Notes: generated by a model from the sequence alone, not told the origin. A DNA stretch of 64,000 nucleotides from Alphaproteobacteria bacterium (GCA_016927735.1 JAFGMC010000006.1:116026-180025); one strand, 5' to 3'; shown: positions 1,664 through 63,592, counted from the first letter of the stretch. Program-made: numbers and translations.

Positions 1664-1691
1664 AGCATAAATGCAAATGTAAGGAATTGTT

Positions 1692-3167
1692 ATGATATTT
1701 TCGAAAATATTAAAAGTAAATTTATCTATTTTTTGTTTGTTAACTCTGGCTGTTATGCCAAATAATTTATTTGCCGAAGGTATTCAAGAAGCTTGGGATA
1801 ATCCAAATGCAAATATGGCATCCGGCAGTACAAAACCTGGATATGCTCAATTAACTTGGGTTTCTGGCAGTGTTTTACCAGTTAAATTACGCAACGGTAT
1901 GGTAACAATGGTAAATTTACCAGCTGGTGAACAAATCGAAGATGGTGTTGTTGGAAATCAAGATTTATTCGATTTTGATCCGCAAAAAAATGGGCGGTCT
2001 ATGTATATCACACCTGCGGGAAGTAATCAGGGGGCTGATACTAATTTGATTGTGACTGGAAAATCTGGAAATAAATATATTTTCTACCTTCGCAGTGAAC
2101 CCGCTAATTCCAGTGAAATAACATATTCACAGGTTGATATTGTTTTGGACTCGAACAGTTCTTTACCTGTTGCAAATAGTTCGTCTTCACAATCTGCTGG
2201 TATGAATTCGATATTTAAAAAAGTATCAACTAGCAGCAGTGTTGTTGGTGTTGATGGTGAAGATTATGGATGGATTAAATCAATGAAAATTGATCCATCT
2301 GAATTTCGTTTTGATTTGGATATATTTGTCCCAAATCCAGATGATTATGTAATTGCACCTGAACGCGTATGGCGCGACAGAATATTCACATACATTGATT
2401 TCGGTGACAAGGTTATTGCAATGACACAACGCCCAGTTGTATCATTGTTGGTTGAGGGTGGCGAGAGCCCAGTTGGTTTCCGTACTGATGGTGAAAACGG
2501 CAGACTGCTTATTATCGAAGCGGTTGGTGATATGGTTTTGCGTTCAGGTCAGCGAATTGTATGTATCAAGAAACGTGAAAAACCATTCTTGATTGCAGAT
2601 ACTGCAAGTGTTATGGCGCTGGCCGAAGCTAATGTTGCACAAAGCATGACATCTACCCAGTCATTGAATAATGTCGCTTATTCTAACACTGGGACAATGG
2701 TATCATCAAACGGGTACGGCGTTGCACCGACTATGAATTATGCTGCATCTGGTGTGGCAACAAATTATGGTTCATCCACAAGTGGTGTAAATATGTTACC
2801 AACCCAAAGAAATACTGCAGGCAGTTATTTACCACAAACAGGTATACCATTAATCAGCAGTAATCAAACAGGTGTTGCTGTTGAATTAAAATCTGATACT
2901 TCGGTCAAGGCACTGAATGATTATTGGACAGGATTATTGGCAAAGTTCAGTGGCGAAGATGGTAAAGGAATACTGACACCTTATAAAGGTATGGTATTCT
3001 TTGCAGTTGATGAACAAGGTGTTGGTGAATTGGGATCTGATTCTGCAACAGCCCGCTTATATCGACTGCGCATCGGTCCAATGTCTGATATCGATAATGC
3101 ACAAAAATTGTGCGACCAGATGTTAAAGTTCTCGGGCACTAGCTGTCACGTAGTAAGAATACAGTAA
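1692..3167 (+). CDS. VirB9/TrbG/CagX-family T4SS outer-membrane core component fused to a C-terminal SPOR-like domain
   Basis: Has a signal peptide. The N-domain reads ...MYITPAGSNQGADTNLIVTGKSGNKYIFYLRS (compare VirB9 TNL.V.T..R.Y.F.L). The C-domain reads PERVWRDRIFTYIDFGDK...PVVSLLVEGGESPVGFRTDG...MVLRSGQRIVCIKK. A linker of about 90 aa rich in S/T/N/G follows. The last 97 aa (from 2874) end in ARLYRLRIGPMSDIDNAQKLCDQMLKFSGTSCHVV, which is a SPOR-type pattern. Confidence 0.7.
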   Translation: MIFSKILKVNLSIFCLLTLAVMPNNLFAEGIQEAWDNPNANMASGSTKPGYAQLTWVSGSVLPVKLRNGMVTMVNLPAGEQIEDGVVGNQDLFDFDPQKNGRSMYITPAGSNQGADTNLIVTGKSGNKYIFYLRSEPANSSEITYSQVDIVLDSNSSLPVANSSSSQSAGMNSIFKKVSTSSSVVGVDGEDYGWIKSMKIDPSEFRFDLDIFVPNPDDYVIAPERVWRDRIFTYIDFGDKVIAMTQRPVVSLLVEGGESPVGFRTDGENGRLLIIEAVGDMVLRSGQRIVCIKKREKPFLIADTASVMALAEANVAQSMTSTQSLNNVAYSNTGTMVSSNGYGVAPTMNYAASGVATNYGSSTSGVNMLPTQRNTAGSYLPQTGIPLISSNQTGVAVELKSDTSVKALNDYWTGLLAKFSGEDGKGILTPYKGMVFFAVDEQGVGELGSDSATARLYRLRIGPMSDIDNAQKLCDQMLKFSGTSCHVVRIQ

Positions 3168-3187
3168 AATAAAGTTCTTGAATATTT

Positions 3188-17325: not shown

Positions 17326-19365
17326 ATGGAATTTGATCATAGCAAATTTTGGTCTTGCTGTGCAATAAAATTAATCCCTATAATCATTGGTATGAGAGAA
17401 TTTCTGGAACATCAGTTTCAAAATCTATTTCTTTGGTCACCTTTTGTGATGGCTTTTGGTGCAGCACTATATTTTTTATTGCCATCAGAACCAAGTTTTT
17501 ATTATCCATTGTTGATTGCTGGTCTGTCATTGGCGATTATTATTTTCAGAAAACCAAATGTAATTTTAACAACAATTTTATTATTTATCTTTGGCTTTTT
17601 CTATGCTGCTGGATTTACCCGATTAATTGATACACCACAAATATCACACGATATACATGACCGTGATATATCGGGAATCGTAACCGATATTGATTATGCC
17701 AATAATAAAACAAAAGTATTTGTAAGAACACCAGATATAACAGAAAACAAAAATACCATAATCAGATTATCTTTGGACACAGATCAAATAATTCCAAATA
17801 TTGGGGGTAATATAAACGCTAATGTCACCTTGTTTAAACCTTCTGGTGCAACAGCGCCTGGGTCTTTTGACTATTAACGTTGGGCATATTTTAATGGGCT
17901 TACGGCAACCGGATATATAAATAATTATAATAAAAAACCGATAACAAAAGAAACCCGATTAAATATAAATACTCTTCGAAATTATCTACATAATAAAACA
18001 AATTCAATATTGGCCGATACATTGGTTCTGGGTTATAAAAATGCGATTCCAAAGGAAGATATGCAATATTGGATCGCGACCGGGGTTGGACATGTGTGGT
18101 CAATCAGTGGATTTCATATGACACTGGTTTCAACTTGGTTATTTGCATTTTTTTATTTAATATTCAGATCTATCCCAAAAATTACACGAAAAATACCTGC
18201 ACGTTTTCCGGCAATAATATTTGCATGGTTTGGGTTGTTATTTTATCTACTTTTATCAGGCATAGATGTCGCGACTGTTCGCGCATTTATGATGACCAGT
18301 TTAATATTTATTGCATTTATTTTTGGTCGTAATGCATTTTCATTACGTAATGTATGTATCGCATTTATGGCAATATTTTTGATTAATCCGCACTATGTTA
18401 TGCAGCCTGGTTTTCAATTATCCTTTTCTGCAATTTTTGGTCTGATTTGGTTTTTTAGTGAAAACAGTTATAAAAAATTATCTTTTGATAAAAAAATATT
18501 TCGGGTTATAAAGGCAGCAACAATGACATCAATTATCGCAACACTATTTACTGCGCCGTTTGTTGCTGCCAATTTTTACTCATTGCCCGTTTACGGTCTG
18601 ATTGGAAATTTAATACTGTTACCTGTATTTTCATTTGCAATTATGCCACTGGTTATGATCGGAACAATTGGCGCGTTGCTGGGGATTATGTCGCCGCTTA
18701 TCTGGTCTGGGGAAATTTATAATTGGGTGCTGGAGATTGCAAACAAGATTGCAGAATTGCCCTTTGCACAAATACAAACTCCATCAATTCCAACAATTGC
18801 TTTATTTTTAATAATTATTGGTTTCTTATGTTTAATATTTATAAATAATTACAAAAAAATTCGTTTTAATGTTATTTTATTTTTAACATTTTTTATATCT
18901 GGGTTAACAATAATTACTTTTAATCCCAGACCTATTTTTTACGCAACCGATGACCATGAATTAATAGCATTTGTAAAAAACGGGGAACTGGAATTCAACA
19001 AGGGGCGTGCATCAAATCATTATTTTGCATTTGACTCTTGGAAACAATTAAACTTTGAACCTATTGGAACAACAAACAAGAAACGCAGATGTGTCAAAGG
19101 CGTTTGTATTTATAAAACAAAAAATTGGACACTGGCATATGCACAAAAATATGTTCCACTTTCTGAAAATATTGTTGAATTTTGTCGCAATCCAAAAATT
19201 GATTTTATCGTATCGTATTTTGATGTTAAATCAGAAAAATGTAATCATAAGATTTTGCGTGGTGGGTTTGTAATTTATAAATCAGGCAGAATTAAATACA
19301 CCCAATCTAATCGTTGGTGGCATACCCGGCACTTACAAAATATAACCCCGAAGCTGGCGCAGTAG
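17326..19365 (+). pseudogene. comEC: ComEC/Rec2 DNA internalisation channel, interrupted by one in-frame TAA (17875..17877)
   Basis: ORFs 17326..17877 and 18010..19365 are in the same frame. Translation across the gap is uninterrupted apart from the stop: ...PGSFDY*RWAYFNGLTATGYINN...LADTLVLGYKNAIP...GVGHVWSISGFHM. These are the ComEC DUF4131 and competence-domain motifs. The true start is probably MREFLEHQF at 17392. Confidence 0.7.
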
Positions 19366-26352: not shown

Positions 26353-26916
26353 TTAATTCTGCATTTTTACCCTTTCACCCTCTCCTATTTTGGAAAGAAT
26401 AATTATATCCCCATCTGATAATCCTTTTGAAATAACAGCATTATCAGAATCTTGATTTACAATTCCAACATCAATTTTTTGCGCAAAACCATCTTTTACA
26501 ATCATTAAAGAATTATTATTAATTGCATAAATGGGAACAAAAAAACCGTTATTTTTTAATTCTGCATAATTCAAACCGTCCGACGCGCCACGGGTTGTAA
26601 TAACATGCATTCCAGAATCTAAATCTATATTATTTGAAACTGATAATATTGATCCTGTACCAACTTTTTGACCCACGCGGAATTTATAAACACGTGATGA
26701 AGATACCAATGCACGATTATTTTTTACAGATAAAGGCTCTTTTAATACATCTGTTTTACGATTAACTTGCATAACTTTAACTGGTACACCTTGTTCTTCG
26801 AAAACACGTGAAGGGTTAAAAATATAACGTGCATTTTCAGATCCAATAACTGTAAATCTGAATCCAACCCAACCAATTATAGAAATTGCACATAAAATAT
26901 AAATTACTTTTTTCAT
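26353..26916 (-). CDS. Very short periplasmic adaptor (membrane fusion protein)-like protein, 187 aa
   Basis: N-terminal TM anchor and beta-rich segments (VPVKVMQV..., KFRVGQKVGTGSIL, VPIYAI...MIVKDGFAQKIDVGIV, GLSDGDIIIL). These resemble the lipoyl, barrel and MP parts of RND adaptors. It sits between the TolC-like and AcrB-like genes. It is too short to hold a coiled-coil hairpin. Confidence 0.55.
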   Translation of the reverse strand: MKKVIYILCAISIIGWVGFRFTVIGSENARYIFNPSRVFEEQGVPVKVMQVNRKTDVLKEPLSVKNNRALVSSSRVYKFRVGQKVGTGSILSVSNNIDLDSGMHVITTRGASDGLNYAELKNNGFFVPIYAINNNSLMIVKDGFAQKIDVGIVNQDSDNAVISKGLSDGDIIILSKIGEGERVKMQN

Positions 26917-47966: not shown

Positions 47967-49274
47967 TTATTTTTTTACCGCACCACTAACGGATGTGTAC
48001 CATTTCTTGATATTTCCCCACACTTTATCTATATTATCTTTGGTGGTTTTATAATATGTATCTGGTATTTCCACATTTGCAAACAGTGTTTTTATTAATG
48101 TTGTTATCATTGCAATAAACATTGCAATAAACAATCCCATCAGAACAATTGTTATTAAACTATCATTATTCATCATCAGACCATCCATCAGAATTGTCGA
48201 ATCATTTTTTGCCAGCGCAGTTTGCAGTGCGGCCGCCCCCTGCCAATTTCCAAATACCGAATTTAAAAATATAATTGCAAACGAAACAAATACACCAATC
48301 ATCGCGATACCAGCAGTTCCTTTTATAACTTCATTTACAGTATCTTGAATGGATTTCGCGCCATTACCAGGTATGATTGACCAATCCTTGAATAACCAAC
48401 CCATTAAAAACATAGGCAACATTATTAAATTCATAGATAATTTTATAAATATCTCCAGAAAGTATAACGGTATCGGTAATAATGCAAAAAAGAACAATAC
48501 TAATATCAAAAGTCCAATAAAGAAAATTGGAATATTCGGAAAAAATGGCACATTCCATAAAATCTTGTGCATATATTGGGAATTAAATGACATATTCAAC
48601 ATTGTCCAACCAACTGTCATTCCCAAACCTGTCATTTGATGAACACCTGCCAACTCGCACGCCAAATTATGTCGCAATTTTGGTGAATATGCACCAGAAT
48701 TTGCAGCCGTACCATCTATTGAAATAGGATCTGCCAGGGCAGTTGCAACCACACATTCTGAAATTTTCTCGTTACCAGTCACAACCCTATTCAAAGATAA
48801 ACCCACATTAAATACAGGTTCTATAACCGCATTGGTTAATAAACGTGGTAATGGAAATGCCAACAAAGCTATAACAAAACCCAATTTTACAATATGTGTC
48901 CCAAAAATTCCTGCAATTGCCCATGGTTCTTCTGCCTTGTTTATTCCCAAATATCCAGATAACAATTTCCATGCAAACCAAACCGCTGTCAGCGCAATAC
49001 ACATCGGTATAATTGCATGACCAATTGCATTATACGCCCGTGGCAAGAGGTTTGACATTGTTGCCATAACGTCTGAAAACATCTGACATGACCAGCATGT
49101 CGAAAAGAAAGATAATGCATCCGCCATATTAACGGGGGCGACCGAACGATAAATAGAAAAACCGGCAATTACACCAATGCCTGCGATACCACCTATAACC
49201 AAAGGTGCAACTGCCCCTGCTGAAAAAGGCAAGAGAGATAAAAATACTATCCAAAACTTCTTTAATTTATTCAT
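47967..49274 (-). CDS. Polytopic membrane protein, paralogue 1 of 5 (VirB6/TrbL-like by architecture)
   Basis: 435 aa with a signal-like N-terminus and multiple TM spans. N-proximal CWSCQMFSDVM motif. A loop carries a Cys pair (ECVVAT...LACELAG). The C-terminal tail is DNIDKVWGNIKKWYTSVSGAVKK. It is divergent from the other four paralogues. Confidence 0.45.
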   Translation of the reverse strand: MNKLKKFWIVFLSLLPFSAGAVAPLVIGGIAGIGVIAGFSIYRSVAPVNMADALSFFSTCWSCQMFSDVMATMSNLLPRAYNAIGHAIIPMCIALTAVWFAWKLLSGYLGINKAEEPWAIAGIFGTHIVKLGFVIALLAFPLPRLLTNAVIEPVFNVGLSLNRVVTGNEKISECVVATALADPISIDGTAANSGAYSPKLRHNLACELAGVHQMTGLGMTVGWTMLNMSFNSQYMHKILWNVPFFPNIPIFFIGLLILVLFFFALLPIPLYFLEIFIKLSMNLIMLPMFLMGWLFKDWSIIPGNGAKSIQDTVNEVIKGTAGIAMIGVFVSFAIIFLNSVFGNWQGAAALQTALAKNDSTILMDGLMMNNDSLITIVLMGLFIAMFIAMITTLIKTLFANVEIPDTYYKTTKDNIDKVWGNIKKWYTSVSGAVKK

Positions 49275-49282
49275 TGGCTTTA

Positions 49283-49291
49283 ATTATATCA
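49283..49291 (-). promoter_or_regulatory. Extended -10 box TGATATAAT, 8 nt upstream of the paralogue-1 ATG
   Basis: The minus strand reads TGATATAAT-TAAAGCCA-ATG. No Shine-Dalgarno lies between. Confidence 0.4.
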
Positions 49292-49311
49292 TAAAAAGTT
49301 CATTGATTTTA

Positions 49312-49320
49312 TGGTATAAT
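49312..49320 (+). promoter_or_regulatory. Extended -10 box TGGTATAAT, 7 nt upstream of the paralogue-2 ATG
   Basis: The plus strand reads TGGTATAAT-TCTGTTC-ATG. No Shine-Dalgarno lies between. Confidence 0.4.
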
Positions 49321-49327
49321 TCTGTTC

Positions 49328-50587
49328 ATGAAGAAACTATTCTTTGCTGTTTTTTGCGCTTTATTATTTATCGTCCCCGCGCACGCCAGTTGGGGAATTG
49401 TAGACAGTTTGAATCTGGCGCCATTCGTCCCAATTGTTTTGGATGCGTTAATGTCAGTCGCAACGGGCAGTTATGAATTCTTTGTTGGTAATGGTACTGG
49501 TATTATTTATGTTTTTATCTGGGGTATTTTGGGTGTATCAATTGGTTTATACTTGGTTAAGATGTATTTTCCAAAATCTTGGTTGGGCTTCTTTGGTTTC
49601 AAGGGTGGTGGCGAAATGTGGGAAGGTAAAACCAGTGGTATGCAGATAACTGAAAAATTATTAAAAGATGCAATGCGTGCAATCATTGCTGCGACAATTT
49701 TATTGCAAATAAAACCTATTTATGTGACGGACTGGATTGTTAACCCTTTCTTGCGTTTTGGCGCAATTTATACAGAGAATATTACCGACAGTATAAATAT
49801 AAATGGCCAAAGTGCTAAAAAAATAAAATGTCCTAAATCAATTATTGAGAAAGGATGGATATCCGAAGACAGTTGCAACTTCTTGGTACAACCAGTATCT
49901 GTTTTATCAAATGCTAATAATCAAATTATAAAACGTGGTTTTGAATTTATAAATCGCGGATTAATTGGATTAATGACACTTGTACCACATGGTGGTGAAG
50001 ATTTTTTAAATTTACTGACCGGAATATTTTTGGTTTTTTCATTTGTATCCAGTAACTTTTTTATGGCTTTGCTTATCATACAGGGAATTTTTAATTTCGG
50101 AATGTCTCTGATTTTGTATCCTTTTCAGGTTTTAACATGGGTTGCAAAACCGAAGAATCCTGATAAATGGTTGGATTTCTGGCCTCCATTCGAAGGTATA
50201 ATTAAATCGTTACAACAATTGGTTATAACGATGATTGCGTGTTCTTTTATATTAGTGATTAACATTGCAATAATCCGGGCACTATTTCAGTGGAACAGCT
50301 CTGTATTCGTTGTGGCTGCTGGTGGGAGCGCAACCAGCAATGTTCCAACTGTTACAAACAGTGTAATGGGATTTGGACAGCATTCTATTTTATGGTTATC
50401 AACAATACTGACGTTTTATTTGATGTACAGAATATTTGATATGACACGCGATATGTTAAAGAAATATGCACCAGGTATGGATGGTTTGTATAACAAAGTC
50501 AAAGACGATCCAAAGAAAATTTTGGGAAATATTAAAAATCTTGGTTCCAAAATTGGAACTGCTGCGGGATGGATAAAAAAGAAATGA
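49328..50587 (+). CDS. Polytopic membrane protein, paralogue 2 of 5 (VirB6/TrbL-like by architecture)
   Basis: 419 aa. Signal peptide MKKLFFAVFCALLFIVPAHA. A loop carries a Cys pair (IKCPKS...DSCNFLVQP). The tail is DDPKKILGNIKNLGSKIGTAAGWIKKK. Confidence 0.45.
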   Translation: MKKLFFAVFCALLFIVPAHASWGIVDSLNLAPFVPIVLDALMSVATGSYEFFVGNGTGIIYVFIWGILGVSIGLYLVKMYFPKSWLGFFGFKGGGEMWEGKTSGMQITEKLLKDAMRAIIAATILLQIKPIYVTDWIVNPFLRFGAIYTENITDSININGQSAKKIKCPKSIIEKGWISEDSCNFLVQPVSVLSNANNQIIKRGFEFINRGLIGLMTLVPHGGEDFLNLLTGIFLVFSFVSSNFFMALLIIQGIFNFGMSLILYPFQVLTWVAKPKNPDKWLDFWPPFEGIIKSLQQLVITMIACSFILVINIAIIRALFQWNSSVFVVAAGGSATSNVPTVTNSVMGFGQHSILWLSTILTFYLMYRIFDMTRDMLKKYAPGMDGLYNKVKDDPKKILGNIKNLGSKIGTAAGWIKKK

Positions 50588-51774
50588 ACGGATGGATAAA
50601 CCCTTTGGTTGATGGATCTGTGCAGTGTTGGGGCTGCCCTATTTTCGACAGATTATTCCAGGTAATTTCATCAGCTGCGGGGGCAATTTATCGTCAATTT
50701 ACTTTATTTTGCATTTTAATATTTTGTCTAATTTTAGCATTTTATATTTTGAATACTGTTTGGAAGAATATCAAAGGTGGTGTGGAAGATCCTATGTATC
50801 AAAAATCTATCAAGCCTGTTTTAATTAATTCGCTTTTTGTTTTTGTTTTGCTGGGTCTGGGTTTATATCTGCCACGATTTATTTCAACCGTCACATTTGA
50901 ACCAGCAGCACAGATAACATTGACCTATACACAAAGTATGATAAATACGAATAATGAAATTGTGAATCAAAAGGTCACCTATCAACCACAACCAATGGAT
51001 GAAAATGGGTTTTATCGACCACAATTACGCGACACAATTATTATGTTAATGAAGACAACAATAACCCAATTCCAGTCATATATAAAATTAGGTGTTGCGA
51101 TTATGGACAAGGCTTTTTCTTGGTCAGCCCTTACAGGTATTGGCGCATTGGTGAAACATATTTTAATATTTGCGATGGGACTGTTCTTGGTCTATGGCTT
51201 TTTCAAAATATTCATAAAGTTTTGCTTTTATTTTGTAGATATTATTGTGGCAATGACATTCTTTGCATTCTTTTTTCCATTATCACTGGTAATGTTTGTG
51301 TTTAAGAATTCTGATGCACCAGATTGGATAAAATCCATTGGATCTGGATTGGGCGCGGATCAGTTTAAGAAAATTATAAATGCAATTATTTCACTGGCTT
51401 CTGCGGTTTTGACCTATACAGTTATAATGGTCATAATTGCAAAATTCTTCTCTGGTGATGGGGTATCAACAACTGACTTGATGCAGATGATAACCATTGG
51501 GGAAATATTTGCTGGTGCATTGTCTTATGATAACTTGGCAATGATGACAATTACCGGGTGCATTGTTTTGATATACGTTATTGACTTCTTGGCTGGTCAG
51601 GTACCAAAGGTCACAGAAATGGTTATGTCTGCATTTGATGTCAAAGAAGAAAAATCACTGAGTGAGGAAATGGGTAATAATGCATTAAAATTAACAACTA
51701 ATATTGCAAACACTTTAAAAAATATCGGGAAAACTGTTATTGATGGTGGAAAGAAAGAAGAAAAGAAAAAATAA
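50584..51774 (+). CDS. Polytopic membrane protein, paralogue 3 of 5 (VirB6/TrbL-like by architecture)
   Basis: The start is taken at MNGWINP, forming an ATGA overlap with the upstream stop; the ORF is open from 50569. CWGCPIFDRLF motif and multiple TM spans. The tail is LKNIGKTVIDGGKKEEKKK. Confidence 0.45.
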   Translation: MNGWINPLVDGSVQCWGCPIFDRLFQVISSAAGAIYRQFTLFCILIFCLILAFYILNTVWKNIKGGVEDPMYQKSIKPVLINSLFVFVLLGLGLYLPRFISTVTFEPAAQITLTYTQSMINTNNEIVNQKVTYQPQPMDENGFYRPQLRDTIIMLMKTTITQFQSYIKLGVAIMDKAFSWSALTGIGALVKHILIFAMGLFLVYGFFKIFIKFCFYFVDIIVAMTFFAFFFPLSLVMFVFKNSDAPDWIKSIGSGLGADQFKKIINAIISLASAVLTYTVIMVIIAKFFSGDGVSTTDLMQMITIGEIFAGALSYDNLAMMTITGCIVLIYVIDFLAGQVPKVTEMVMSAFDVKEEKSLSEEMGNNALKLTTNIANTLKNIGKTVIDGGKKEEKKK

Positions 51775-53205
51775 ATGCTGAAAGCAAAACTGATTCAAAT
51801 TGCTGTAAAATTTATTATGGGCGCAATTGCGTTGGGTGTTGGTATTTGGTATTTATCATCTTCTATTGGTGGTGCCAGTATAGGATACACCAGCCTGAAT
51901 AGTTTTCTTTCTGCAATTGGTGTTCAAAATGGCGATATTGCCAGCGCAAATGGTTGTTTTTTGTGCGGATATATTGAAAAATTATTTGCAGCAATTGGAA
52001 ATGCGGCGGAAAACTTTTGGATCGCTATGGTGGATAATATTTGGATATTATTGGCGATTGGATTTGGAATATTCCTATTTTACACAACAATAATACATCT
52101 TTATGACGCTTCCAAAAAAAATGTTAGTTTAGATGAGTCTGAAAAAAAAATAGAATTCAAACCTTGGTTCGACAAAATTTGGAAACAAGGTGTACGTGTT
52201 ATGATGGCAGGTGCATTGTTGGGGATCTTGGGATTTGGTGGTACAATTGTTTTAAAACAAATCACAAATATTACAATAACCCCCGTTATGTTCGTTGGCG
52301 CAGAATTATCAATGGCGGCAACTGGGGTTTCTGATTCTGCCCAATGTGGAACATCAATCCAGAATGATGATATTTTAAATCCTGTTTTAAAACCTTTTAT
52401 GTGTGTGGTTGGAAATTTAAACACCGTAATGCTGGCAGGGGCCGCCGGTGGATTTTCATTAATGAATTATTCCTGGATGGGTATGGGTGGTGGTTTGTTC
52501 ACATGGCTTGCAGGATTGGCACTGGTCATAATGTTTTTGGTTATTGGATTTAATTTATTCTTTGACATTTTATCTGTTATTTTCAAACTGGTATTTTTAA
52601 TAATATTCTTGCCGCTTATTATCGCAGCGGGTGCATTTGAAGGAACATGGGGATTGGCGAACGGTGTTGTTTCTAATTCAATAAATATGCTGGTAAAATC
52701 CGCCATCAGAATTGTCGCAATAGCACTGAAGATATTAATAACCTATGCGATTGTATCTTTTGCAGCCGATGAATATTTCCCAGGACCCAATGATGGTTAT
52801 AATGCGATACTGCCACCACTTGTTACCGAGAAATCACAAAAAATGAATGACCAAGCATTATCTGTTATGTCAGTATTTTCAAATTGTGAAAAGGTATCAA
52901 TTGTAAATGGTGCGGTAGATAAAGAATTATTCAAGAATTGTTTTACCGCCAATCGCGCCCAGGTAGAACGCAGATATCCCGGGGCATTTGATTTTATGGG
53001 AAATGGGTTTGAATTTTTATTATTATGGTTTGGTATATTCTTTTTATATTTCTATGTAATGTCCCAAAAAATTGATACTTTGTTGGGTAAAGATAGCAAG
53101 GAAGAATTTGATTATGGTAATTGGATCAAAGACCTTGGAAAACGCATCTGGGGTGCACCAGCACAAATTACTGAACAAATCACAAAAGCAACGGAGAAGA
53201 AATGA
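51775..53205 (+). CDS. Polytopic membrane protein, paralogue 4 of 5 (VirB6/TrbL-like by architecture)
   Basis: 476 aa. It starts immediately after the upstream TAA. CFLCGYIEKLF motif. A loop carries a Cys pair (AQCGTS...PFMCVVGN). The tail is NWIKDLGKRIWGAPAQITEQITKATEKK. Confidence 0.45.
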   Translation: MLKAKLIQIAVKFIMGAIALGVGIWYLSSSIGGASIGYTSLNSFLSAIGVQNGDIASANGCFLCGYIEKLFAAIGNAAENFWIAMVDNIWILLAIGFGIFLFYTTIIHLYDASKKNVSLDESEKKIEFKPWFDKIWKQGVRVMMAGALLGILGFGGTIVLKQITNITITPVMFVGAELSMAATGVSDSAQCGTSIQNDDILNPVLKPFMCVVGNLNTVMLAGAAGGFSLMNYSWMGMGGGLFTWLAGLALVIMFLVIGFNLFFDILSVIFKLVFLIIFLPLIIAAGAFEGTWGLANGVVSNSINMLVKSAIRIVAIALKILITYAIVSFAADEYFPGPNDGYNAILPPLVTEKSQKMNDQALSVMSVFSNCEKVSIVNGAVDKELFKNCFTANRAQVERRYPGAFDFMGNGFEFLLLWFGIFFLYFYVMSQKIDTLLGKDSKEEFDYGNWIKDLGKRIWGAPAQITEQITKATEKK

Positions 53206-54557
53206 TAAAAAAATTTCTTGTTCTTTGTTGTTTATTGTTTGCTTTTACCAGCAATGTTTTTGCTGCTTCAAATATTCCAAGTGGTGATGTCGGGAATTTT
53301 GGCGCATGGGCAACCGAACATAACCGTGAATTATTTGTAAATAATCTGACTGATGATATTTCAGCATTTCAAGCCGGATTCCAAAAAAATGTCCTGGTCA
53401 AAGATTATGTACCAATTGAGGCAAAAGTGGGGCTGGCATTTATGGGTGGAATGTCAATGGTCGGTGGTGTATTGGAACGTTCACTGGTCAGATTTATCAG
53501 TATATTCTTGATTGTAATGTTTGTATTCTGGGTTATGTTAGAGGCCTATCAAATGATGAAGGCGACACAAAAATCACGTGAATTAATCGAAGAAATAATC
53601 AAGAAAGCTGTTTTAATTACAATATGGATTTGGATAATTCAACAAGGTCCAGCGCAACTGTTTATGTGGATTATGGGACCTGTTATAACCATTGGAACAT
53701 ACTTGTCCGATTTAATTTTAAATTCGATTACATCAACGGCCGGGGTTTCACTGCCAGACACTTGCACAGCGATACATAACTATGTTGCAAACACACCTTC
53801 AAGTTATGCGATTTTGGATTCAACACAAACAGCAAACCTGCTTTGTGTTCCAACACGTCTTTCCGGATTCTTTTATACAGCAGTTGCAATGGGTTGGAAA
53901 TGGATATTGGTAGGAATTGGTACCAGCGCATTTACATTTGCGGCGGGGGCAACATTTGTTGTGTTGTTTATTTATAATATTTGGAAGTTTGCACTGATGG
54001 CATTTTCTGTAATTGCAGATTTATTCCTGGGGATAATGATGTTGCCATTCACCGCAATTGCTCAATGCTTTGGTGGAAAATCATCAACAAACACTCCTTT
54101 TGGTGCGCCGCTGGATGCACTTGGAAGCGGTGGCAATGGCAAGACAACATATGATGGTTATGCGGGTAAAATATTTAATGGATTCTTGGACTTATTTAAT
54201 ACAAAGAATTTTTCACTGGATGCACAAATAAAAAGATTTATAAACGCGATGATTTATTTTGTATCACTGTCAATTGTGATTGCATTATGTGCCGCGATAT
54301 TATCTGGTGTTGTGGATGTTGATATAGCGACACAAATTCCAACATTGAAAAATGATAGTTTTATGACAGTATTAATTGTCGGTTTTCTTGTTACATATTT
54401 GGCATCAACGGCTGGTGATATTGCAAAGAACATTGGTGGAAATATTGATGGATCAAAAGAATTTACAAAATTCGGTGATGATATTAAAAAGCTTTGGGGA
54501 AATACAACCAAGACCGCACAGGATTGGTACAAGGCTGCCCGTGGTGGAAAGAAATAG
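53202..54557 (+). CDS. Polytopic membrane protein, paralogue 5 of 5 (VirB6/TrbL-like by architecture)
   Basis: 451 aa with an ATGA overlap with the upstream gene. Signal peptide ..FTSNVFA. A loop carries a Cys pair (DTCTAIH...LLCVPTRL). The tail is DDIKKLWGNTTKTAQDWYKAARGGKK. Confidence 0.45.
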   Translation: MIKKFLVLCCLLFAFTSNVFAASNIPSGDVGNFGAWATEHNRELFVNNLTDDISAFQAGFQKNVLVKDYVPIEAKVGLAFMGGMSMVGGVLERSLVRFISIFLIVMFVFWVMLEAYQMMKATQKSRELIEEIIKKAVLITIWIWIIQQGPAQLFMWIMGPVITIGTYLSDLILNSITSTAGVSLPDTCTAIHNYVANTPSSYAILDSTQTANLLCVPTRLSGFFYTAVAMGWKWILVGIGTSAFTFAAGATFVVLFIYNIWKFALMAFSVIADLFLGIMMLPFTAIAQCFGGKSSTNTPFGAPLDALGSGGNGKTTYDGYAGKIFNGFLDLFNTKNFSLDAQIKRFINAMIYFVSLSIVIALCAAILSGVVDVDIATQIPTLKNDSFMTVLIVGFLVTYLASTAGDIAKNIGGNIDGSKEFTKFGDDIKKLWGNTTKTAQDWYKAARGGKK

Positions 54558-57357: not shown

Positions 57358-57390
57358 TAAAAAAATGCGATATCTAAATCGCATTTTTTA
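57358..57390. terminator. Bidirectional terminator between dnaQ (+) and Cys-rich protein A (-)
   Basis: AAAAAATGCGAT-ATCTAA-ATCGCATTTTTT. Confidence 0.55.
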
Positions 57391-57417: not shown

Positions 57418-59709
57418 TCAAGGTTCAACCAAAAGATCAGAAATACATTGCGCGCCTGATGTTGCACCTGTAGAAGTTGTTGTATAACCACTCGCACAAG
57501 ATGTACATGCTGTAGTTTCAGTAATACCGCCCCAATATGTACCAATTGGACAATCATTACAAACACCAACCGAACTACGATATTCACCAGCAGCGCAAGT
57601 AGTTGCACAAGTGCCACTCCATACAGTATAACCAACAGAACATTTACAGCGTTCGTTTACATAACCTTGTACCGTTCCATTTGCAGAAACTGTTCCAGAA
57701 ACAGACTGGTAAACAGAATTATCTGGACATAATAATGACTGATAGAACATTTCAGAAATATTATTTATACATGTTGTATCACTGACACATAAACCAGTTG
57801 TATCATGTGCAAACACAGCATAAGCACAAGTCAGAGCAACATTATGACATGCACCACGCATAACATTATATACACTGGTGATACTTGCAGTTGAAGACCA
57901 AGCGTTAACCTGACTGACCTGTTGATTATAACAGCTTGCAATATCAACCATACAATTTCCTGCATAATCAGATATTATCTGTTGTTGTGCTGCTTGTATA
58001 TTTACCATTGCACGTTGAATGTAATTTATAACAACATCATTATATGGTTTATATGTATTATTTGAATCATATGTGTAATACTGACACTTATCCAGAACCG
58101 CACGACACAAACCACCATCTGTTGATTTCTGACCAGTTCCTATTTTTTCCAACAAGTATCTAACTATACAACTTCCATTATTATAAGTAGTTGCACATTG
58201 GGTCAAATTTACAGTACTGGCAGTTTCTAAAAAAGTTGAATCTATTGTGGAATTATTATAAGAAGTCATAAAATCTATAATATTAGATATATCCTGACCC
58301 AAGATAACACCACCATTTTCATCAATATATTTCTTTGTTGGATCTAAACACTTCGTATAATCAGAACCACAAACCATATCATCAAGCATACATGTATTCA
58401 GTGCAGATATACATCCCTTGGCGTCATATTGATTTTTATTTTGAAGAACAGCCAAACGAGCTTTTTGCAACATTTGATTTGCACTGCGAACGTTTGATTT
58501 CAAAGTATCGTTCATTTTGGTCAGACCTTGTTCATAAGCAATACAATCTTTGTCTATTGCCAGGTCATAATTTCCAGTTATTTGTTGTGGTGTTGCCCCA
58601 GCATTTTTACATTGTGTTAAAACAGAATTACAACGCTTTTTTGCTGCACTGTAAAGTTCTGTACCACGCAAATTAGAAAAACTGGATGTACTGTTACCCA
58701 AGAAATCCAAACTGAATAAGTCTGAAGTTGATGTGCTTGAAGAAAAATCCAAATCCATATCTAATCCAGTATATGTATCACCAGAATAAGATGTTGCACT
58801 GGTTGGATTTTTTATTAATTTTTCAATCTCGTCCAACATACTGCGTGATTCGGTTGTATCTTTTGTTCCATCTAATACTTCTTCTGCCTCGGTTGCGGAC
58901 ATAATCGCACGAATTTCATCAGCAGATAACCCAACATAGCGAATACGTTGTGCCACTTCATTTAAATCTGAATTAGCTTCTTTAACAGCGGATTCAACCT
59001 TGGTATATTTTGAAAGATTTGATGAACAAGAACAACGTTTTTGGTTTGCATCAATAACTGCACAAAATTGATCCATACAATCGTTGTACTGTTGTTGGCA
59101 AGATTTGTTTAAATCAGCTGTTTCTTGTAAACGCGTTGTGGCTTCTTTTATTGATTCTTTTGTATCTGATTTTGCTGCACGATTTTGAACAGTGCGACCA
59201 CTATTAAAATTGAAATTAGAACCTGTTTGAACATCAGTACCATCAATGGTTGCGCGGCCACCTACTTCTGCGGTAGATGGTCGTAAATATATGCCAGCAC
59301 GACGAACAGCAGCTGTATTATTTATACTGGCTGCTTGTGTACGTGCACTGCGTCCAACAGTATTAACAGTTTCTTCTAATGATTCACGTTGACCAAGCGA
59401 TGCAACACCAGATCTAGAAATTGCATTTCTTGTAGCAGGTACAGCATTACGAGAATTTTCATTATTTTGATTTATTATCGCAGTTCTGGAAACCAAAGAC
59501 CCAACATCATCAGATTCATTTATATCTTGTAAATTTTTTGAAGCGACTGTTCTTGTTACGATTGCACGTGATACAACAGCAGGCACGGGTTCTTCTATAA
59601 TTTTATTATTTGATGATGGAACAGCACGTGAAATATTTACAGCATCACCAGCAATACCTGTTGAAGCATAAAAAAACATAATTAAAAAACATAAAACGAT
59701 TTTCTTCAC
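57418..59709 (-). CDS. Large secreted Cys-rich protein A (763 aa), paralogue of 60716..62797
   Basis: GTG start after GGGGGCAGGCGA. Signal peptide MKKIVLCFLIMFFYASTGIAG. About 170 aa of Ser/Arg/Asn/Thr/Val-rich sequence with VSR-type motifs follows. The rest is a Cys-framework domain starting CQQQYNDCMDQFCAVIDANQKRCSCSS. I counted 32 Cys in the mature part by hand. Confidence 0.6.
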   Translation of the reverse strand: MKKIVLCFLIMFFYASTGIAGDAVNISRAVPSSNNKIIEEPVPAVVSRAIVTRTVASKNLQDINESDDVGSLVSRTAIINQNNENSRNAVPATRNAISRSGVASLGQRESLEETVNTVGRSARTQAASINNTAAVRRAGIYLRPSTAEVGGRATIDGTDVQTGSNFNFNSGRTVQNRAAKSDTKESIKEATTRLQETADLNKSCQQQYNDCMDQFCAVIDANQKRCSCSSNLSKYTKVESAVKEANSDLNEVAQRIRYVGLSADEIRAIMSATEAEEVLDGTKDTTESRSMLDEIEKLIKNPTSATSYSGDTYTGLDMDLDFSSSTSTSDLFSLDFLGNSTSSFSNLRGTELYSAAKKRCNSVLTQCKNAGATPQQITGNYDLAIDKDCIAYEQGLTKMNDTLKSNVRSANQMLQKARLAVLQNKNQYDAKGCISALNTCMLDDMVCGSDYTKCLDPTKKYIDENGGVILGQDISNIIDFMTSYNNSTIDSTFLETASTVNLTQCATTYNNGSCIVRYLLEKIGTGQKSTDGGLCRAVLDKCQYYTYDSNNTYKPYNDVVINYIQRAMVNIQAAQQQIISDYAGNCMVDIASCYNQQVSQVNAWSSTASITSVYNVMRGACHNVALTCAYAVFAHDTTGLCVSDTTCINNISEMFYQSLLCPDNSVYQSVSGTVSANGTVQGYVNERCKCSVGYTVWSGTCATTCAAGEYRSSVGVCNDCPIGTYWGGITETTACTSCASGYTTTSTGATSGAQCISDLLVEP

Positions 59710-59853
59710 TCGCCTGCCCCCAGACGCAAATTATTTTTATTCTGAATCATATGTCCGTATAACACCCCGAACACCAGAATTCACTCTCTGTAAATTATAT
59801 CACAACCGTTTTAAAAAAATAAGAAGAAACTTGATGTAACTTAGTTTATAAAA

Positions 59854-59881
59854 CTAAAAAAAACGCGCTTAAAAAGCGCGT
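59854..59881 (-). terminator. Rho-independent terminator after rpmA
   Basis: On the minus strand, ACGCGCTT-TTT-AAGCGCGT is followed by TTTTTTT. Confidence 0.6.
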
Positions 59882-59885
59882 TTTA

Positions 59886-60152
59886 TTATTTTGCTTCTGC
59901 ATCTGGAAGAACAGAAACGAACTTTCTATCACCCTGGCCTTTTTTAAATTTAACAATGCCTGCGATTTTTGCAAACAATGTATGATCTTTACCCATACCA
60001 ACATTCAAACCTGGATGAACAGATGTTCCACGTTGGCGAATAATAATATTGCCAGAAATTACACGACTGCCGCCACCTTTTTTAACACCTAATCTACGTC
60101 CCGCACTGTCGCGTCCGTTGACCGATGCCGATCCCGCTTTTTTATGTGCCAT
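59886..60152 (-). CDS. rpmA: 50S ribosomal protein L27
   Basis: [49 protein letters not shown] is the L27 consensus. Confidence 0.95.
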
Positions 60153-60229
60153 AATTTGCTCCTTACATTTCGGATTTCAGATCTTTGATTTATGATTTTA
60201 ATTATAAAACACAAATCATTATTCAGAAA

Positions 60230-60529
60230 TTAACCCTTTATTTCTTTGATTTTTAAAACAGTTATATATTGACGATGTCCCTTTGTACGACGATAGTTTT
60301 GACGTCTTTTCTTTTTGAACACCAATATTTTGTCATTACGTTTTTGTTCTAAAATTTCTGCGACAACTTTTGCGCCAGCAACCAAAGGGTTACCAACAGT
60401 GCCACCGACCATTAATACTTGATCGAACTCAACATCACCTTCGGAACTAAGTTTTTCTACTTTTATAATATCGCCTACTTTTACACGATATTGTTTTCCG
60501 CCGGTTTGAAAGATTGCAAAATCACTCAT
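60230..60529 (-). CDS. rplU: 50S ribosomal protein L21
   Basis: FAIFQTGGKQYRVKVGDIIKVEKL...KKRRQNYRRTKGHRQ is the L21 consensus. Confidence 0.95.
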   Translation of the reverse strand: MSDFAIFQTGGKQYRVKVGDIIKVEKLSSEGDVEFDQVLMVGGTVGNPLVAGAKVVAEILEQKRNDKILVFKKKRRQNYRRTKGHRQYITVLKIKEIKG

Positions 60530-60595
60530 CTCATTCCTCTTTGTTATACATTGGATCGGTTTAAAACAAACCCAATTTGTTGAAAACTTTATGCA

Positions 60596-60623
60596 ATATT
60601 AACATTATTTATACAAAAGTCAA
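60596..60623 (-). promoter_or_regulatory. Candidate sigma70 promoter of rplU-rpmA (TTGACT-16 nt-TAATAT)
   Basis: Minus-strand hexamers lie at 60618..60623 (-35) and 60596..60601 (-10), about 65 nt upstream of the rplU start. Confidence 0.35.
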
Positions 60624-60685
60624 GGTTTTTGCATAAAAATTTTAACAAAACTGTTGTGATTAACCATAATTTCATATAAAACAAA

Positions 60686-60712
60686 TTAAAAACCCGCCGA
60701 AGCGGGTTATTT
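60686..60712 (-). terminator. Rho-independent terminator after Cys-rich protein B
   Basis: On the minus strand, AACCCGC-TTCG-GCGGGTT is followed by TTTAATTT. Confidence 0.6.
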
Positions 60713-60715
60713 TTA

Positions 60716-62797
60716 TTATGGTAACGTTCTCGTCCATTCTCGCAGAGTATCTGCACCGGAACCAATTGCATTTTGCAAGCACATTTCGCGAATTGCAGCC
60801 GAGTCACCATTTGCACCTTCGTCTGGTAAACCAGTTGCGGCTATATCTGCAGCCTTGGTCAATATTTCGTTCAAAGTGACAACGTTTCTACAAGTATTCA
60901 GAGTGTAATCTTGACTCCAATTACATGATGTACTATCCAAATCGTCGATAATTGCTTTGAACTGAGCGCCGGATGGATTACATATCATATCTTCATAGCA
61001 ACTTGGAACGTTTGCTAATTGTGCACAATATGTTTTTATACGTGATGTACTCCACGAAGGATTAGATGCTTCTTGTGTTGTGTAACAATCATAGATTTCA
61101 TCAATACATTCATTAAAGTTGGTACCTGCTGCCAACGCATCAGCCAAAATAGTTTTTGTTTCTTCTTGTGCAAATTCCAAACGTTTCTTTTGTAATGCCT
61201 GTTGTGCGGCAACTTTTTGATAACCAATATTTTGTGCGGTTGTACGTAACTGGTCACCATAGGCATCACAATCTGCATTCGCATCCAGCGCATATTTTTG
61301 TAAAACACTGCGACGTGCATCTGCGACTGGTCCACGCAAAGTATTATATGGATCACCGGAAGTGCTGGTATAACCAAAACATGTTGCAGTATTTGAAGTT
61401 GTATAACCTGTATTACCGGTCACAAAATTCAATTCATAGCTACCACTATTGGTGACAGAAATCATACTGTTATAATTATATGGACAACTGCTGCTGCCAT
61501 TTGAACATTTTCTAGCTGTGCTTGGTGGTGCACCACAAGCTTCATAGATTCCATTAAAGCACGAATCTAAAACACGATTACATACATTATTATGTGCATA
61601 TTCAAACAATTCATAACCCCAAGTTTCAGCTAAAGAATCTTTTACATCTGTATCTGACAAAGCGTCTGTTAGACCACTCATATCACTGACAACACTACTT
61701 ATAGTACCCAGAGCAGTTGTTAAGCTGTCATTATTAGAACCTGTGATTGTTAATGTTTTATCTTTTGCATCAGCCCAAGACTTCAAAGATGCCAAAATAT
61801 CACTGCCAGAACCATCCAAGTTTGACACATCAAATCCAAAAGAATTTCCGCTGGCTGAACAATATGAAGGTAAAGAACAAGCATCTTCATAAATCATATG
61901 ATTATAACACCATTCTTTTTTATCATCGATACCATTATCATCTTGATCTGTGCCACCTTTGTAAATTTCTGCCATATCTTTATAAGAAACACAATTCATA
62001 ACTTTTTCAGCATCAGTTAATTGAAAGGCAGAACTGATATCCTTACCCTTGGTAGCAACCAATAATGCCAATTCTCCTGAAACTTTAATTAATTCTTCAT
62101 TTGCAGATTCTAATTTTGATTCTGCATCTGCGAAAGATTTTACACGACCAGCACATGCGCATCTGCGTTGTGCAGCATTACGTGCAGTACAAATTTCATC
62201 CATACATGCATAATAGCTTTCCATACAATTACTGTATGCTTCGGAAGAAATTAATCCAGTTGTAGAATCAATAATATTAGAATAATTACCCGTATATAAT
62301 TTTGAAGATAAATATGTATACGATGATGTTGCAGATGTACTTTTACTTCCACGAATTGCGCTGCCTGTCAGCGAAACGCGTGATGTATTTGTTGTGGCTG
62401 TACGTGATCTAACTGCGCGATTTTGTTGGGCGGTTGTTCTAGAAGTATTACCAGTTGCAGAACGCGAAACAACGTTTCTTGAAACCACTGGTGTATTCGA
62501 AGTTGCACGTGAAACAATATTTCTTTCTGAAACAGTGCGTGATGGTGTAACAGTTGCACCCCCAGTACGAGATGTACTGGAATTAGAACGTGGACTGGTT
62601 CTTGTTGATCTGGAATCATCTGTTCCAGCACGTGTAGATTGTGGTGCATTTCCTACATTTTGAACTTGTGGTGCAATAGGGTCTGCAAAAACTGCACGCA
62701 TAGATAATACTGTAGAACATACAAAAAATGCTGCTGCCAACAAGAAAACTGTTCCAGCTGCATTTTTAAAATTTTCGCCGAAATTACGACTCTTCAT
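60716..62797 (-). CDS. Large secreted Cys-rich protein B (693 aa from MKSRNF), paralogue of 57418..59709
   Basis: The start is taken at the ATG at 62797, 7 nt after GGAG; the ORF is open to 62863. Signal peptide ..FLLAAAFFVCSTVLSMRAVFA. About 120 aa of Ser/Thr/Arg-rich sequence with repeated VSR motifs follows. The Cys framework CMESYYACMDEICTARNAAQRRCACAG is collinear with protein A. I counted 24 Cys in the mature part by hand. Confidence 0.6.
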   Translation of the reverse strand: MKSRNFGENFKNAAGTVFLLAAAFFVCSTVLSMRAVFADPIAPQVQNVGNAPQSTRAGTDDSRSTRTSPRSNSSTSRTGGATVTPSRTVSERNIVSRATSNTPVVSRNVVSRSATGNTSRTTAQQNRAVRSRTATTNTSRVSLTGSAIRGSKSTSATSSYTYLSSKLYTGNYSNIIDSTTGLISSEAYSNCMESYYACMDEICTARNAAQRRCACAGRVKSFADAESKLESANEELIKVSGELALLVATKGKDISSAFQLTDAEKVMNCVSYKDMAEIYKGGTDQDDNGIDDKKEWCYNHMIYEDACSLPSYCSASGNSFGFDVSNLDGSGSDILASLKSWADAKDKTLTITGSNNDSLTTALGTISSVVSDMSGLTDALSDTDVKDSLAETWGYELFEYAHNNVCNRVLDSCFNGIYEACGAPPSTARKCSNGSSSCPYNYNSMISVTNSGSYELNFVTGNTGYTTSNTATCFGYTSTSGDPYNTLRGPVADARRSVLQKYALDANADCDAYGDQLRTTAQNIGYQKVAAQQALQKKRLEFAQEETKTILADALAAGTNFNECIDEIYDCYTTQEASNPSWSTSRIKTYCAQLANVPSCYEDMICNPSGAQFKAIIDDLDSTSCNWSQDYTLNTCRNVVTLNEILTKAADIAATGLPDEGANGDSAAIREMCLQNAIGSGADTLREWTRTLP

Positions 62798-63034
62798 GGT
62801 AATCTCCAAATTTTCGCATTCACGAAAAATGATTAGTTCAAGTGCGTCGCAACAGCGCAGCACTTATTTACTTGTCATAATTATAACATTTTTAGATTGG
62901 TGTGTAAATAAGAAAACCGTCCACAATAAAAGATATTATATTGATATAAAGTTACGCTTATTATGAATACGTTCTTATTCTTATAAGCACTCAAATCATT
63001 GACTTATTTAATATTTAAGAATAAAATTAAAAAC

Positions 63035-63592
63035 ATGAATAAAATTACACTTTTAATCTTTTTTATTACAACACCTATGATTGCACAGGCAAAAGAAAAC
63101 CCTTTGTTTGGCAAAAATCTTGATAATTCTATTTATTTTTATACAGCCCAAGGAACTGGAAGTGGTACATTATTAAAATTGATTGCCCCAAATATTTGGG
63201 ATTTAAACCGTATGACTGTTTTTATGCTGCAATACAGCCAACCAACAACATTTTTCAGATTACCGGCCAGACAAAGTTTACATTTTGTTCAAAATGTTGC
63301 CTATGGATCAGAAACCGGCTTGTCTTTCAATGCACTTGGTATATCTATTGATGCATCTGTTTTTGATCGAAATGGTTATTATATCGGTTTTGGTCTGGGC
63401 CCTTATATGCGTAATAATCGTGACCGATGGGTTGATAGTCGGTTGGTATTTGGTGAAAAATTCTTTATAGGAAAAAGTTTATCAGACCGCTGGAGTGCTG
63501 AGTTTTTTACAATCCATTTCTCCAACGGAAATTTCACAGATAAAAATTCTGGATTTAACTTTGCTGGATTTTCAATCGGATACAGTTTTTAA
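63035..63592 (+). CDS. Acyloxyacyl hydrolase / lipid A 3-O-deacylase (PagL-like) outer-membrane protein
   Basis: Signal peptide MNKITLLIFFITTPMIAQA. It has beta-barrel-like alternation, the HFSNG motif near the C-terminus, and a terminal aromatic (..IGYSF). Confidence 0.6.
   Translation: MNKITLLIFFITTPMIAQAKENPLFGKNLDNSIYFYTAQGTGSGTLLKLIAPNIWDLNRMTVFMLQYSQPTTFFRLPARQSLHFVQNVAYGSETGLSFNALGISIDASVFDRNGYYIGFGLGPYMRNNRDRWVDSRLVFGEKFFIGKSLSDRWSAEFFTIHFSNGNFTDKNSGFNFAGFSIGYSF

Follow-up and report, generated by a model that had tools for sequence, protein, structure and literature searches.

Why should a ribosomal protein operon lie between two genes for large, cysteine-rich exported proteins? The question is raised by a 64,000-nucleotide stretch of DNA from an Alphaproteobacteria bacterium (GCA_016927735.1, JAFGMC010000006.1:116026-180025), analysed at its full length and called the window below. 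On its minus strand gene B, rplU, rpmA and gene A follow one another, and dnaQ (plus strand) and uvrD come next. An earlier, sequence-only reading had placed rplU-rpmA between A (763 amino acids, aa) and B (693 aa), and the open reading frames (ORFs) agree with it in order, coordinates and length. It had also suggested that the two proteins might be akin to TraN or OmcB, or belong with the type IV secretion system (T4SS) parts encoded in the window. What kind of proteins are A and B? Are they related to each other? Does their arrangement matter to the cell? The TraN/OmcB hypothesis came out negative, and the placement around rplU-rpmA has no evident meaning. We propose, with a probability of roughly one half, that A and B are lineage-specific, Sec-exported, fully disulfide-bonded and largely helical proteins of the envelope or surface, probably serving surface structure or adhesion.

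Export signals, cysteine conservation and layout of the two families

Are the two proteins exported? Signal peptides had been claimed for both, and the n/h/c layout that can be read from each sequence, with small residues at positions -1 and -3 of both predicted cleavage sites, is kept in the orthologues. The signal peptide of A has the classic form (MKK, then IVLCFLIMFFYA, then GIA, with predicted cleavage before GD). That of B is far better conserved than the tail adjoining it, with 13 positions invariant in 39 relatives (M1, A13, L19, L20, A23, S28, T29, S32, R34, A38, D39, P40 and A42) and Cys27 present in 97% of sequences; it may do more than direct export and act, for instance, as an uncleaved anchor or as an element for recognition. 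Behind the signal peptides, composition bears out the low-complexity, Ser/Arg-rich N-termini described earlier: they are rich in Arg and nearly free of Lys, and in B Ser and Thr make up 39%. Residues 22-190 of A hold 16 Arg and 5 Lys at an isoelectric point (pI) of 10; numerous Arg are invariant, and the orthologue alignment contains a conserved VRRAGxTLRPSTAEVGGRATI. Residues 39-160 of B hold 16 Arg and a single Lys at a pI of 12, with 'SR' recurring about every 10 residues and the Arg positions conserved among relatives. Outside these tails, the rest of both proteins is acidic.

The cysteines are the most telling feature. A has 33 and B has 25, one of each lying within the signal peptide, and our recount of the mature parts gives the same 32 and 24 that had been read as even numbers fitting full disulfide pairing. 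Is this a coincidence of two sequences? The A family has 28 alignment columns, and the B family 24, in which Cys is conserved at 80% or more and is essentially invariant. Mature counts are even in 116 of 118 A-type and 116 of 120 B-type sequences and in 97 of 111 divergent representatives, and they differ among relatives by twos, spanning 26 to 40 in A-type and 24 to 54 in B-type proteins. This looks like the signature of complete disulfide pairing: because parity is even and changes come in twos, the mature cysteines would all be bonded to each other and would not serve as metal ligands. Numerous cysteines are spaced CX6C (i, i+7), and since this spacing falls in predicted helices, the models suggest that such cysteines staple helices to each other.

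How closely are A and B related? They had been called paralogous over three stretches, of which the first stands and the others are less certain. BLASTP aligns A with B over about 200 residues of the first stretch at 23% identity (E 4e-11), and hhalign joins the two family profiles over some 80 columns (probability 97.6, E 3.9e-12) that comprise a five-Cys motif and the next helix. The second stretch is weak (targeted hhalign E 6e-4, probability 29) and the third marginal (BLASTP 1e-4; targeted hhalign E 5.6e-5, probability 66). Sequence comparison thus argues firmly for homology across one domain of about 85 aa, and homology beyond it is plausible because all three stretches are collinear. 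The shared domain reads Cx3[YF]x2CMDx[FYI]Cx9RCxC, followed by a helix ending ...T[ED]AE. Its hidden Markov model (HMM) has just two matches in the window, to A and B (3e-43 and 2.8e-41), the domain occurs in one copy in each of 135 divergent representatives, and a search of a 5.8-billion-protein set returned six fragments and no new architecture.

In both families the C-terminus is the variable end. The C-terminal module of A differs in length among orthologues. In long A-type (up to 2338 aa and 121 Cys) and long B-type proteins the first ~700 residues match the profile, and the additions, up to ~1600 residues and exclusively C-terminal, consist of Gly-rich linkers, CxC...CxCxxG[FY] arrays and Listeria-Bacteroides (Flg_new) repeats. 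Flg_new and EGF/TNFR-like modules are not known outside extracellular or surface proteins, and because the added modules are of extracellular types, a surface-exposed distal C-terminus is favoured. Giant A-type orthologues of 1300-2338 aa (L081 10001-17017; the C-termini of P0246, P0247 and P0284) carry both EGF/TNFR-like and Flg_new arrays; one giant orthologue adjoins prophage-type genes (terminase, ParB-methylase, Fic).

Who carries these proteins? With clusters drawn at 90% identity, A has more than 1000 relatives (60-77% identity) and B more than 1200 (60-82% identity, all annotated 'hypothetical'). The relatives of both are unnamed or 'hypothetical' proteins of metagenome-assembled genomes (MAGs) labelled Alphaproteobacteria, Rickettsiales or Candidatus Enterousia. 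Their sources include the guts of humans, ruminants, chickens and termites, along with activated sludge and further anoxic samples. The A-type family is represented in 290 genomes, each standing for a species, and an exhaustive HMMER search with A gathered 700 clusters (50% identity), of which 240 reach E<=1e-30. The lineage is the uncultured GTDB order Rs-D84 / "Ca. Enterousia", across which both families are near-universal. Rs-D84 genomes are smaller than 1 Mb and have no respiration, tricarboxylic acid cycle, standard transporters or most biosynthesis, and the organisms have been proposed to be obligate symbionts or parasites of other cells (PMC12306168). The same study covers the metabolism of Rs-D84, and the A and B proteins are not described in it; a preprint on cysteine-rich repeats turned out to concern something else. 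Between species, A has a median identity of 59% and B one of 61%, next to 64% for UvrD, 74% for DnaQ, 56% for PagL and 51% for a neighbouring membrane protein; by this comparison A and B are conserved about as well as UvrD. The organism itself is a walled diderm, because genes for lipid A, the outer membrane and peptidoglycan are present in the window (PagL, TolC, AcrB, MraY, MurG, FtsW, PBP1a and DacA).

Comparison with known families and folds

Has such a family been seen before? It had been called unrecognised, and searches of Pfam, NCBIfam, PHROGs, PDB and plasmids, none of which gave a family assignment, uphold that. B has no Pfam match at E<=1. Residues 715-755 of A match the Pfam family Ephrin_rec_like/GCC2_GCC3 (PF07699) with 21.8 bits and E 1.6e-4, just under the cut-off of 23.1 bits, and a precomputed PF07699 match is present in two A orthologues. 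Neither protein matches anything in NCBIfam or PHROGs, profile searches over all PDB sequences gave nothing meaningful for either, tblastn against 72,556 PLSDB plasmids, F-like traN carriers included, found no match, and a scan of viral contigs found no relatives. On these searches the family is new to the databases queried.

Do the folds tell more than the sequences? The AlphaFold2 models, built from alignments of 34 sequences for A and 39 for B, are mostly helical and of low confidence, with a mean predicted local distance difference test score (pLDDT) of 56.8 for A and 49.6 for B. Residues 665-755 of A are the sole well-predicted non-helical part (pLDDT ~88), modelled as a small disulfide-rich beta-hairpin fold that resembles the Cys-rich domains of TNFR and ephrin receptors. 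Foldseek against PDB matches only this C-terminal module, to thyroglobulin, HVEM, TNFR1 and EphB2 (probabilities 0.5-1.0, E >= 6e-3), and finds no match for the model of B. No enzymatic or pore-forming domain was found in A or B with Pfam, NCBIfam, PHROGs or Foldseek against PDB.

TraN, of F-type T4SSs, resembles A and B in its signal peptide, its length of about 600-700 aa, its conserved Cys, over 20 in number, and its place in the envelope. A and B differ in that they are unmatched to it in sequence, are predicted to be mainly helical and stand alone on the chromosome among housekeeping genes, and the T4SS genes of the window are of the VirB8/9/10 type, not the F type. The proposed TraN link is therefore not supported, with no match to the TraN profile (PF06986) at E<=1 in Pfam, none in the plasmids and models that are mainly helical. 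TraN identity was rejected on the profile and plasmid searches and on the neighbours, which are rplU, rpmA, dnaQ, uvrD and pagL and not an F-type tra/trb operon. The suggested kinship with OmcB fares no better, since neither Chlam_OMP6 nor DUF11 is matched at E<=1 and the models are again mainly helical; OmcB identity was rejected on these profiles. Chlamydial OmcB and OmcA are, like A and B, rich in Cys and basic towards the N-terminus, with a disulfide-bonded role in the envelope proposed for all of them, whereas the Chlam_OMP6 and DUF11 domains are both missing from A and B, which occur in another lineage that has peptidoglycan genes, and their even Cys parity would permit wholly intramolecular pairing.

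Other systems resemble A and B in part. The beta-hairpin Cys pattern of TNFR, ephrin-receptor and GCC2_GCC3 repeats is shared with the last ~100 aa of A and with the arrays of the long orthologues, but this concerns the C-terminal module only: the remaining ~640 aa are unmatched, and the best Foldseek E value is 6e-3. Disulfide-stapled helical proteins exist elsewhere, in the Sel1-like repeats of Helicobacter Hcp proteins, in twin-CX9C hairpins and in the Duffy-binding-like (DBL) domains of Plasmodium. By analogy, all of these hold helices with regularly spaced Cys as A and B would; the spacing in A and B is mostly CX6C, however, and Pfam finds no Sel1, CHCH or DBL domain in them. Pertussis toxin and its Ptl system, without homology to A and B, are a precedent for a Sec-exported, disulfide-bonded protein that leaves the periplasm through a T4SS, which bears only on a T4SS route for A and B.

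Possible roles in the cell envelope

How might the two proteins work? A and B would be two anciently diverged members of a superfamily specific to Rs-D84 / 'Ca. Enterousia', exported by Sec and folded with all their Cys paired in an oxidising compartment of the envelope. They would share a layout of cleavable signal peptide, basic Arg-rich disordered tail, five-Cys domain and acidic, largely alpha-helical core, in which i/i+7 cysteines on helices probably staple neighbouring helices, while the free C-terminus takes up Cys-rich modules of extracellular type. The conserved helical core could then be a stalk or scaffold, the C-terminal EGF/TNFR-like modules its distal, contact-making end, and the Arg-rich tail may bind an anionic envelope polymer or the surface of a partner. 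In such a scheme A and B would mediate contact between the cell and a partner or substrate, a predicted need of metabolically dependent bacteria. Disulfide stapling, the placement at the surface, the part played by the Arg tail and the adhesive function are all things that we infer; a structural or adhesive role at the cell surface or outer envelope seems the most likely one. Several points weigh against this proposal. The low pLDDT of both models (56.8 and 49.6) leaves the picture of stapled helices tentative. No beta-barrel, autotransporter or lipobox signal was found in A or B, and with it no route across the outer membrane. Exposed adhesins are seldom so strongly conserved, and an internal scaffold would explain the conservation no less well. 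The organisms, finally, are anaerobes that have no respiratory chain (PMC12306168), which makes the forming of disulfides harder to account for.

Could the proteins be internal after all? A and B would then be a periplasmic or inner-leaflet scaffold that is not exposed at the surface, either a disulfide-bonded helical lattice or a tether that joins peptidoglycan to the outer membrane. Such a scaffold would correspond in function to the Cys-rich envelope complex of chlamydiae, and the Arg-rich tails of A and B would be bound to peptidoglycan or lipid A. The high, uniform and housekeeping-like conservation speaks for it, together with the want of a recognisable outer-membrane translocation signal, the lipid A-modifying PagL as a conserved neighbour of B, and the position of A beside Pal, BamB or cell-wall genes in some genomes. 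The C-terminal additions of the orthologues (Flg_new, EGF/TNFR-like), however, are of types not known outside extracellular or surface proteins, the presence of genes for peptidoglycan synthesis makes a substitute wall unneeded, and no OmcB-type domain was found. We consider a scaffold unlikely, though it is the chief alternative.

Is a secretion system involved? A and B might be lineage-specific outer components or adhesins of a VirB system, or Sec-exported substrates released in a second step as pertussis toxin is by Ptl. The window does encode VirB8, VirB9 and VirB10; A lies about 3 kb from a possibly VirB6-like array of five proteins in most relatives and directly downstream of it in three loci; and a reduced genome may offer few other exits to a folded, disulfide-rich protein. 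The array (47967-54557) consists of five tandem paralogous polytopic membrane proteins of 435, 419, 401, 476 and 451 aa, with about 20% mutual identity and Lys-rich C-termini, in an order kept across relatives. Rickettsiales carry tandem VirB6 arrays, which these five genes recall. The five proteins, however, match no VirB6/TrbL profile, PDB chain, plasmid, Pfam or NCBIfam entry; VirB6 identity was rejected when every TrbL/VirB6 profile, PDB and plasmid test failed, and the proteins could be very divergent VirB6-like components or something new. Moreover, A and B resemble neither TraN nor any plasmid-borne T4SS gene, uvrD and dnaQ separate A from the array with A on the other strand, many genomes and the divergent family members place A among unrelated housekeeping or prophage genes, and VirB8-10 lie 52 kb away. 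The suggested link to the T4SS parts of the window thus finds neither homology nor proximity nor a stable gene order in its favour, and we regard a tie to the T4SS as improbable.

Some features of these genes deserve mention for themselves. VirB10 is unusually long (769 aa), with its TrbI domain confined to residues 375-576, and VirB9 has a weak C-terminal SPOR-like match. Three of the five membrane proteins have an N-proximal CxxCxxF (CWSCQMF, CWGCPIFD and CFLCGYIE) that is kept in 4 of 4, 45 of 45 and 34 of 48 orthologues, respectively. A much bolder scheme, which we hold to be a long shot, would place A and B at the core of a contact apparatus, so far undescribed, that sets the Rs-D84 way of life apart. 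It would be a heteromeric surface structure of disulfide-stapled helices that binds the partner cell by its C-terminal Cys-rich modules. In an anaerobe lacking a respiratory chain, its oxidative folding and its passage through the outer membrane would rely on non-canonical machinery, be it a VirB-type T4SS acting in two steps or the five-membrane-protein array. Two-step export of A and B by Sec and T4SS is speculative.

Might A and B instead be weapons, that is, secreted toxins, effectors or bacteriocin-like proteins acting on partner or competitor cells? They would be large exported proteins with receptor-binding-like, Cys-rich C-terminal modules, and a divergent member has prophage genes and a Fic protein as neighbours. 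Yet no enzymatic or pore-forming domain was found, no immunity-gene-like partner is conserved, and the families are universal, single-copy-like and conserved at housekeeping grade where toxins are usually patchy and fast-evolving, all of which makes this very improbable. That the cysteines bind metals (Zn, Cu or Fe-S) in storage or redox proteins, as anoxic habitats and helical i/i+7 Cys that could line the core of a bundle, much as in copper storage proteins, might suggest, is scarcely credible given strictly even Cys numbers with paired gains and losses that are unexpected for metal sites, a His content of 0.3% and no metal-binding family matched in Pfam or NCBIfam; metal ligation was rejected on the parity evidence.

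Rs-D84 / "Ca. Enterousia" is found widely, in the guts of humans, livestock and termites as well as in anoxic environments, and is thought to live off other cells. A and B, among the most conserved lineage-specific exported proteins of the order, are therefore obvious first candidates for its cell-contact interface, and possible markers or antigens with which to find and enrich the uncultured cells. A problem of biochemistry comes with them: by what means are proteins with 24-120 paired Cys folded in a strict fermenter that has no quinone-linked respiration?

Gene order, expression signals and other features of the window

Does the bracketing of rplU-rpmA matter? B is followed by rplU-rpmA in 39 of the 44 loci with enough flanking DNA, and about half of the loci centred on A (26 of 62 when counted strictly) have the full order B-rplU-rpmA-A. 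Elsewhere B directly adjoins A (four loci), or A lies directly 3' of the last of the five membrane-protein genes (three loci) or among other housekeeping genes such as those for a sigma-70 factor, Pal and BamB (17 loci). Divergent family members adjoin prophage genes or rpoBC, plsX and lpxD, and across related loci, each covering ~18 kb, no conserved operon partner of A was found. The bracketing is a frequent but dispensable state of synteny and not evidently functional; we call it dispensable because A moves around and no partner gene is kept. One of the B-centred metagenome loci (L085-L164) reads A, B, rplU, rpmA, A, with two A-type copies. A PagL-like gene adjoins B in 40 of 61 related loci.

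Are the two genes expressed? Each had been credited with its own promoter-like box and terminator, and promoter sites and hairpins could indeed be located for both (Table 1); B, rplU-rpmA and A are predicted to be three separate transcription units. A TGnTATAAT-type box stands 5' of 71 of 74 B orthologues, as against 6 of 370 control windows from coding regions, and an extended -10 box stands 5' of 61 of 65 A orthologues, as against 3 of 325 such controls. Because these boxes are kept across orthologues and occur in about 1-2% of controls, A and B are almost certainly expressed. In most A orthologues (L002-L026 and other A-type loci) no more than 11-16 nt separate the conserved extended -10 box TGTGATATAAT from the ATG, so that the mRNA would be nearly leaderless; A of the window and its closest relatives differ in having a leader of ~70-100 nt, a G-rich Shine-Dalgarno sequence and a GTG start. 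The leader of B orthologues is constant in length (~81-90 nt). As for the starts, A begins with GTG at 59709, and the N-termini of orthologues (consensus MKKxxxCFF...AFADD) favour 763 aa over a 753-aa database variant, while B begins with ATG at 62797, with GGAG upstream, and is 100% identical to a 693-aa NCBI MAG protein.

Table 1. Position, strand and basis of the features discussed, counted from the first nucleotide of the window.
Feature	Position	Strand	Basis and remarks
Gene A	57418..59709	-	ORF; 763 aa; exported Cys-rich protein, A-type family
A signal peptide, aa 1-20	59650..59709	-	Sequence features; predicted cleavage between GIA and GD; orthologue consensus AFA/DD
A Arg-rich disordered tail, aa 21-190	59140..59649	-	Composition, alignment, AlphaFold model
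A shared five-Cys domain, aa 196-282	58864..59124	-	BLASTP, hhalign, domain HMM
A acidic Ser/Thr/Asp linker, aa 301-346	58672..58809	-	AlphaFold model, composition
A predicted helical core, aa 347-662	57724..58671	-	Repeated CxxxxxxC (i, i+7) pairs; 18 invariant Cys
A TNFR/ephrin-receptor-like C-terminal Cys-rich beta-hairpin module, aa 663-763	57421..57723	-	Sub-cut-off Pfam match, Foldseek, pLDDT ~88
Gene B	60716..62797	-	ORF; 693 aa; exported Cys-rich protein, B-type family
B signal peptide, aa 1-38	62684..62797	-	Sequence features; predicted cleavage between VFA and DP
B Arg/Ser/Thr-rich disordered tail, aa 39-160	62318..62683	-	pLDDT <35, no secondary structure
B shared five-Cys domain, aa 183-270	61988..62251	-	BLASTP, hhalign, domain HMM; CxxxYxxCMDxxCx9RCxC and long helix
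B acidic, mostly helical Cys-rich core, aa 271-693	60719..61987	-	AlphaFold model, alignment; 18 further Cys, 17 invariant
rplU (L21)	60230..60529	-	ORF; Pfam L21p in orthologous locus
rpmA (L27)	59886..60152	-	ORF; Pfam L27 in orthologous locus
Promoter-like site of B	62880..62908	-	TTTACA-17-TATAAT with TG; 11/12, TG-extended
Promoter-like site of rplU-rpmA	60596..60623	-	TTGACT/TAATAT
Extended -10 box of A	59794..59804	-	TGTGATATAAT
Terminator-like hairpin 3' of B	60691..60708	-	Hairpin
Terminator-like hairpin 3' of rpmA	59860..59884	-	Hairpin
Bidirectional terminator-like hairpin, A/dnaQ gap	57360..57389	.	Hairpin
PagL-like lipid A 3-O-deacylase (outer-membrane barrel)	62999..63592	+	Pfam PagL E 2.5e-12, above cut-off; divergent from B
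VirB8-VirB9-VirB10 cluster	1016-5497	+	Profile matches; 52 kb from A and B

Two further genes of the window have an unusual form. Between the TolC-like and AcrB-like genes lies an adaptor-like gene of the resistance-nodulation-division (RND) type (26353-26916, minus strand) whose 187-aa product matches TIGR01730 over positions 249-321 only, the C-terminal end of that profile; it appears to be truncated or unusually short. ComEC is encoded on the plus strand in two ORFs, one with a DUF4131 domain (17326-17877) and one with a Competence domain (18010-19365), and the split could reflect a frameshift, a pseudogene or a genuine division of the gene.

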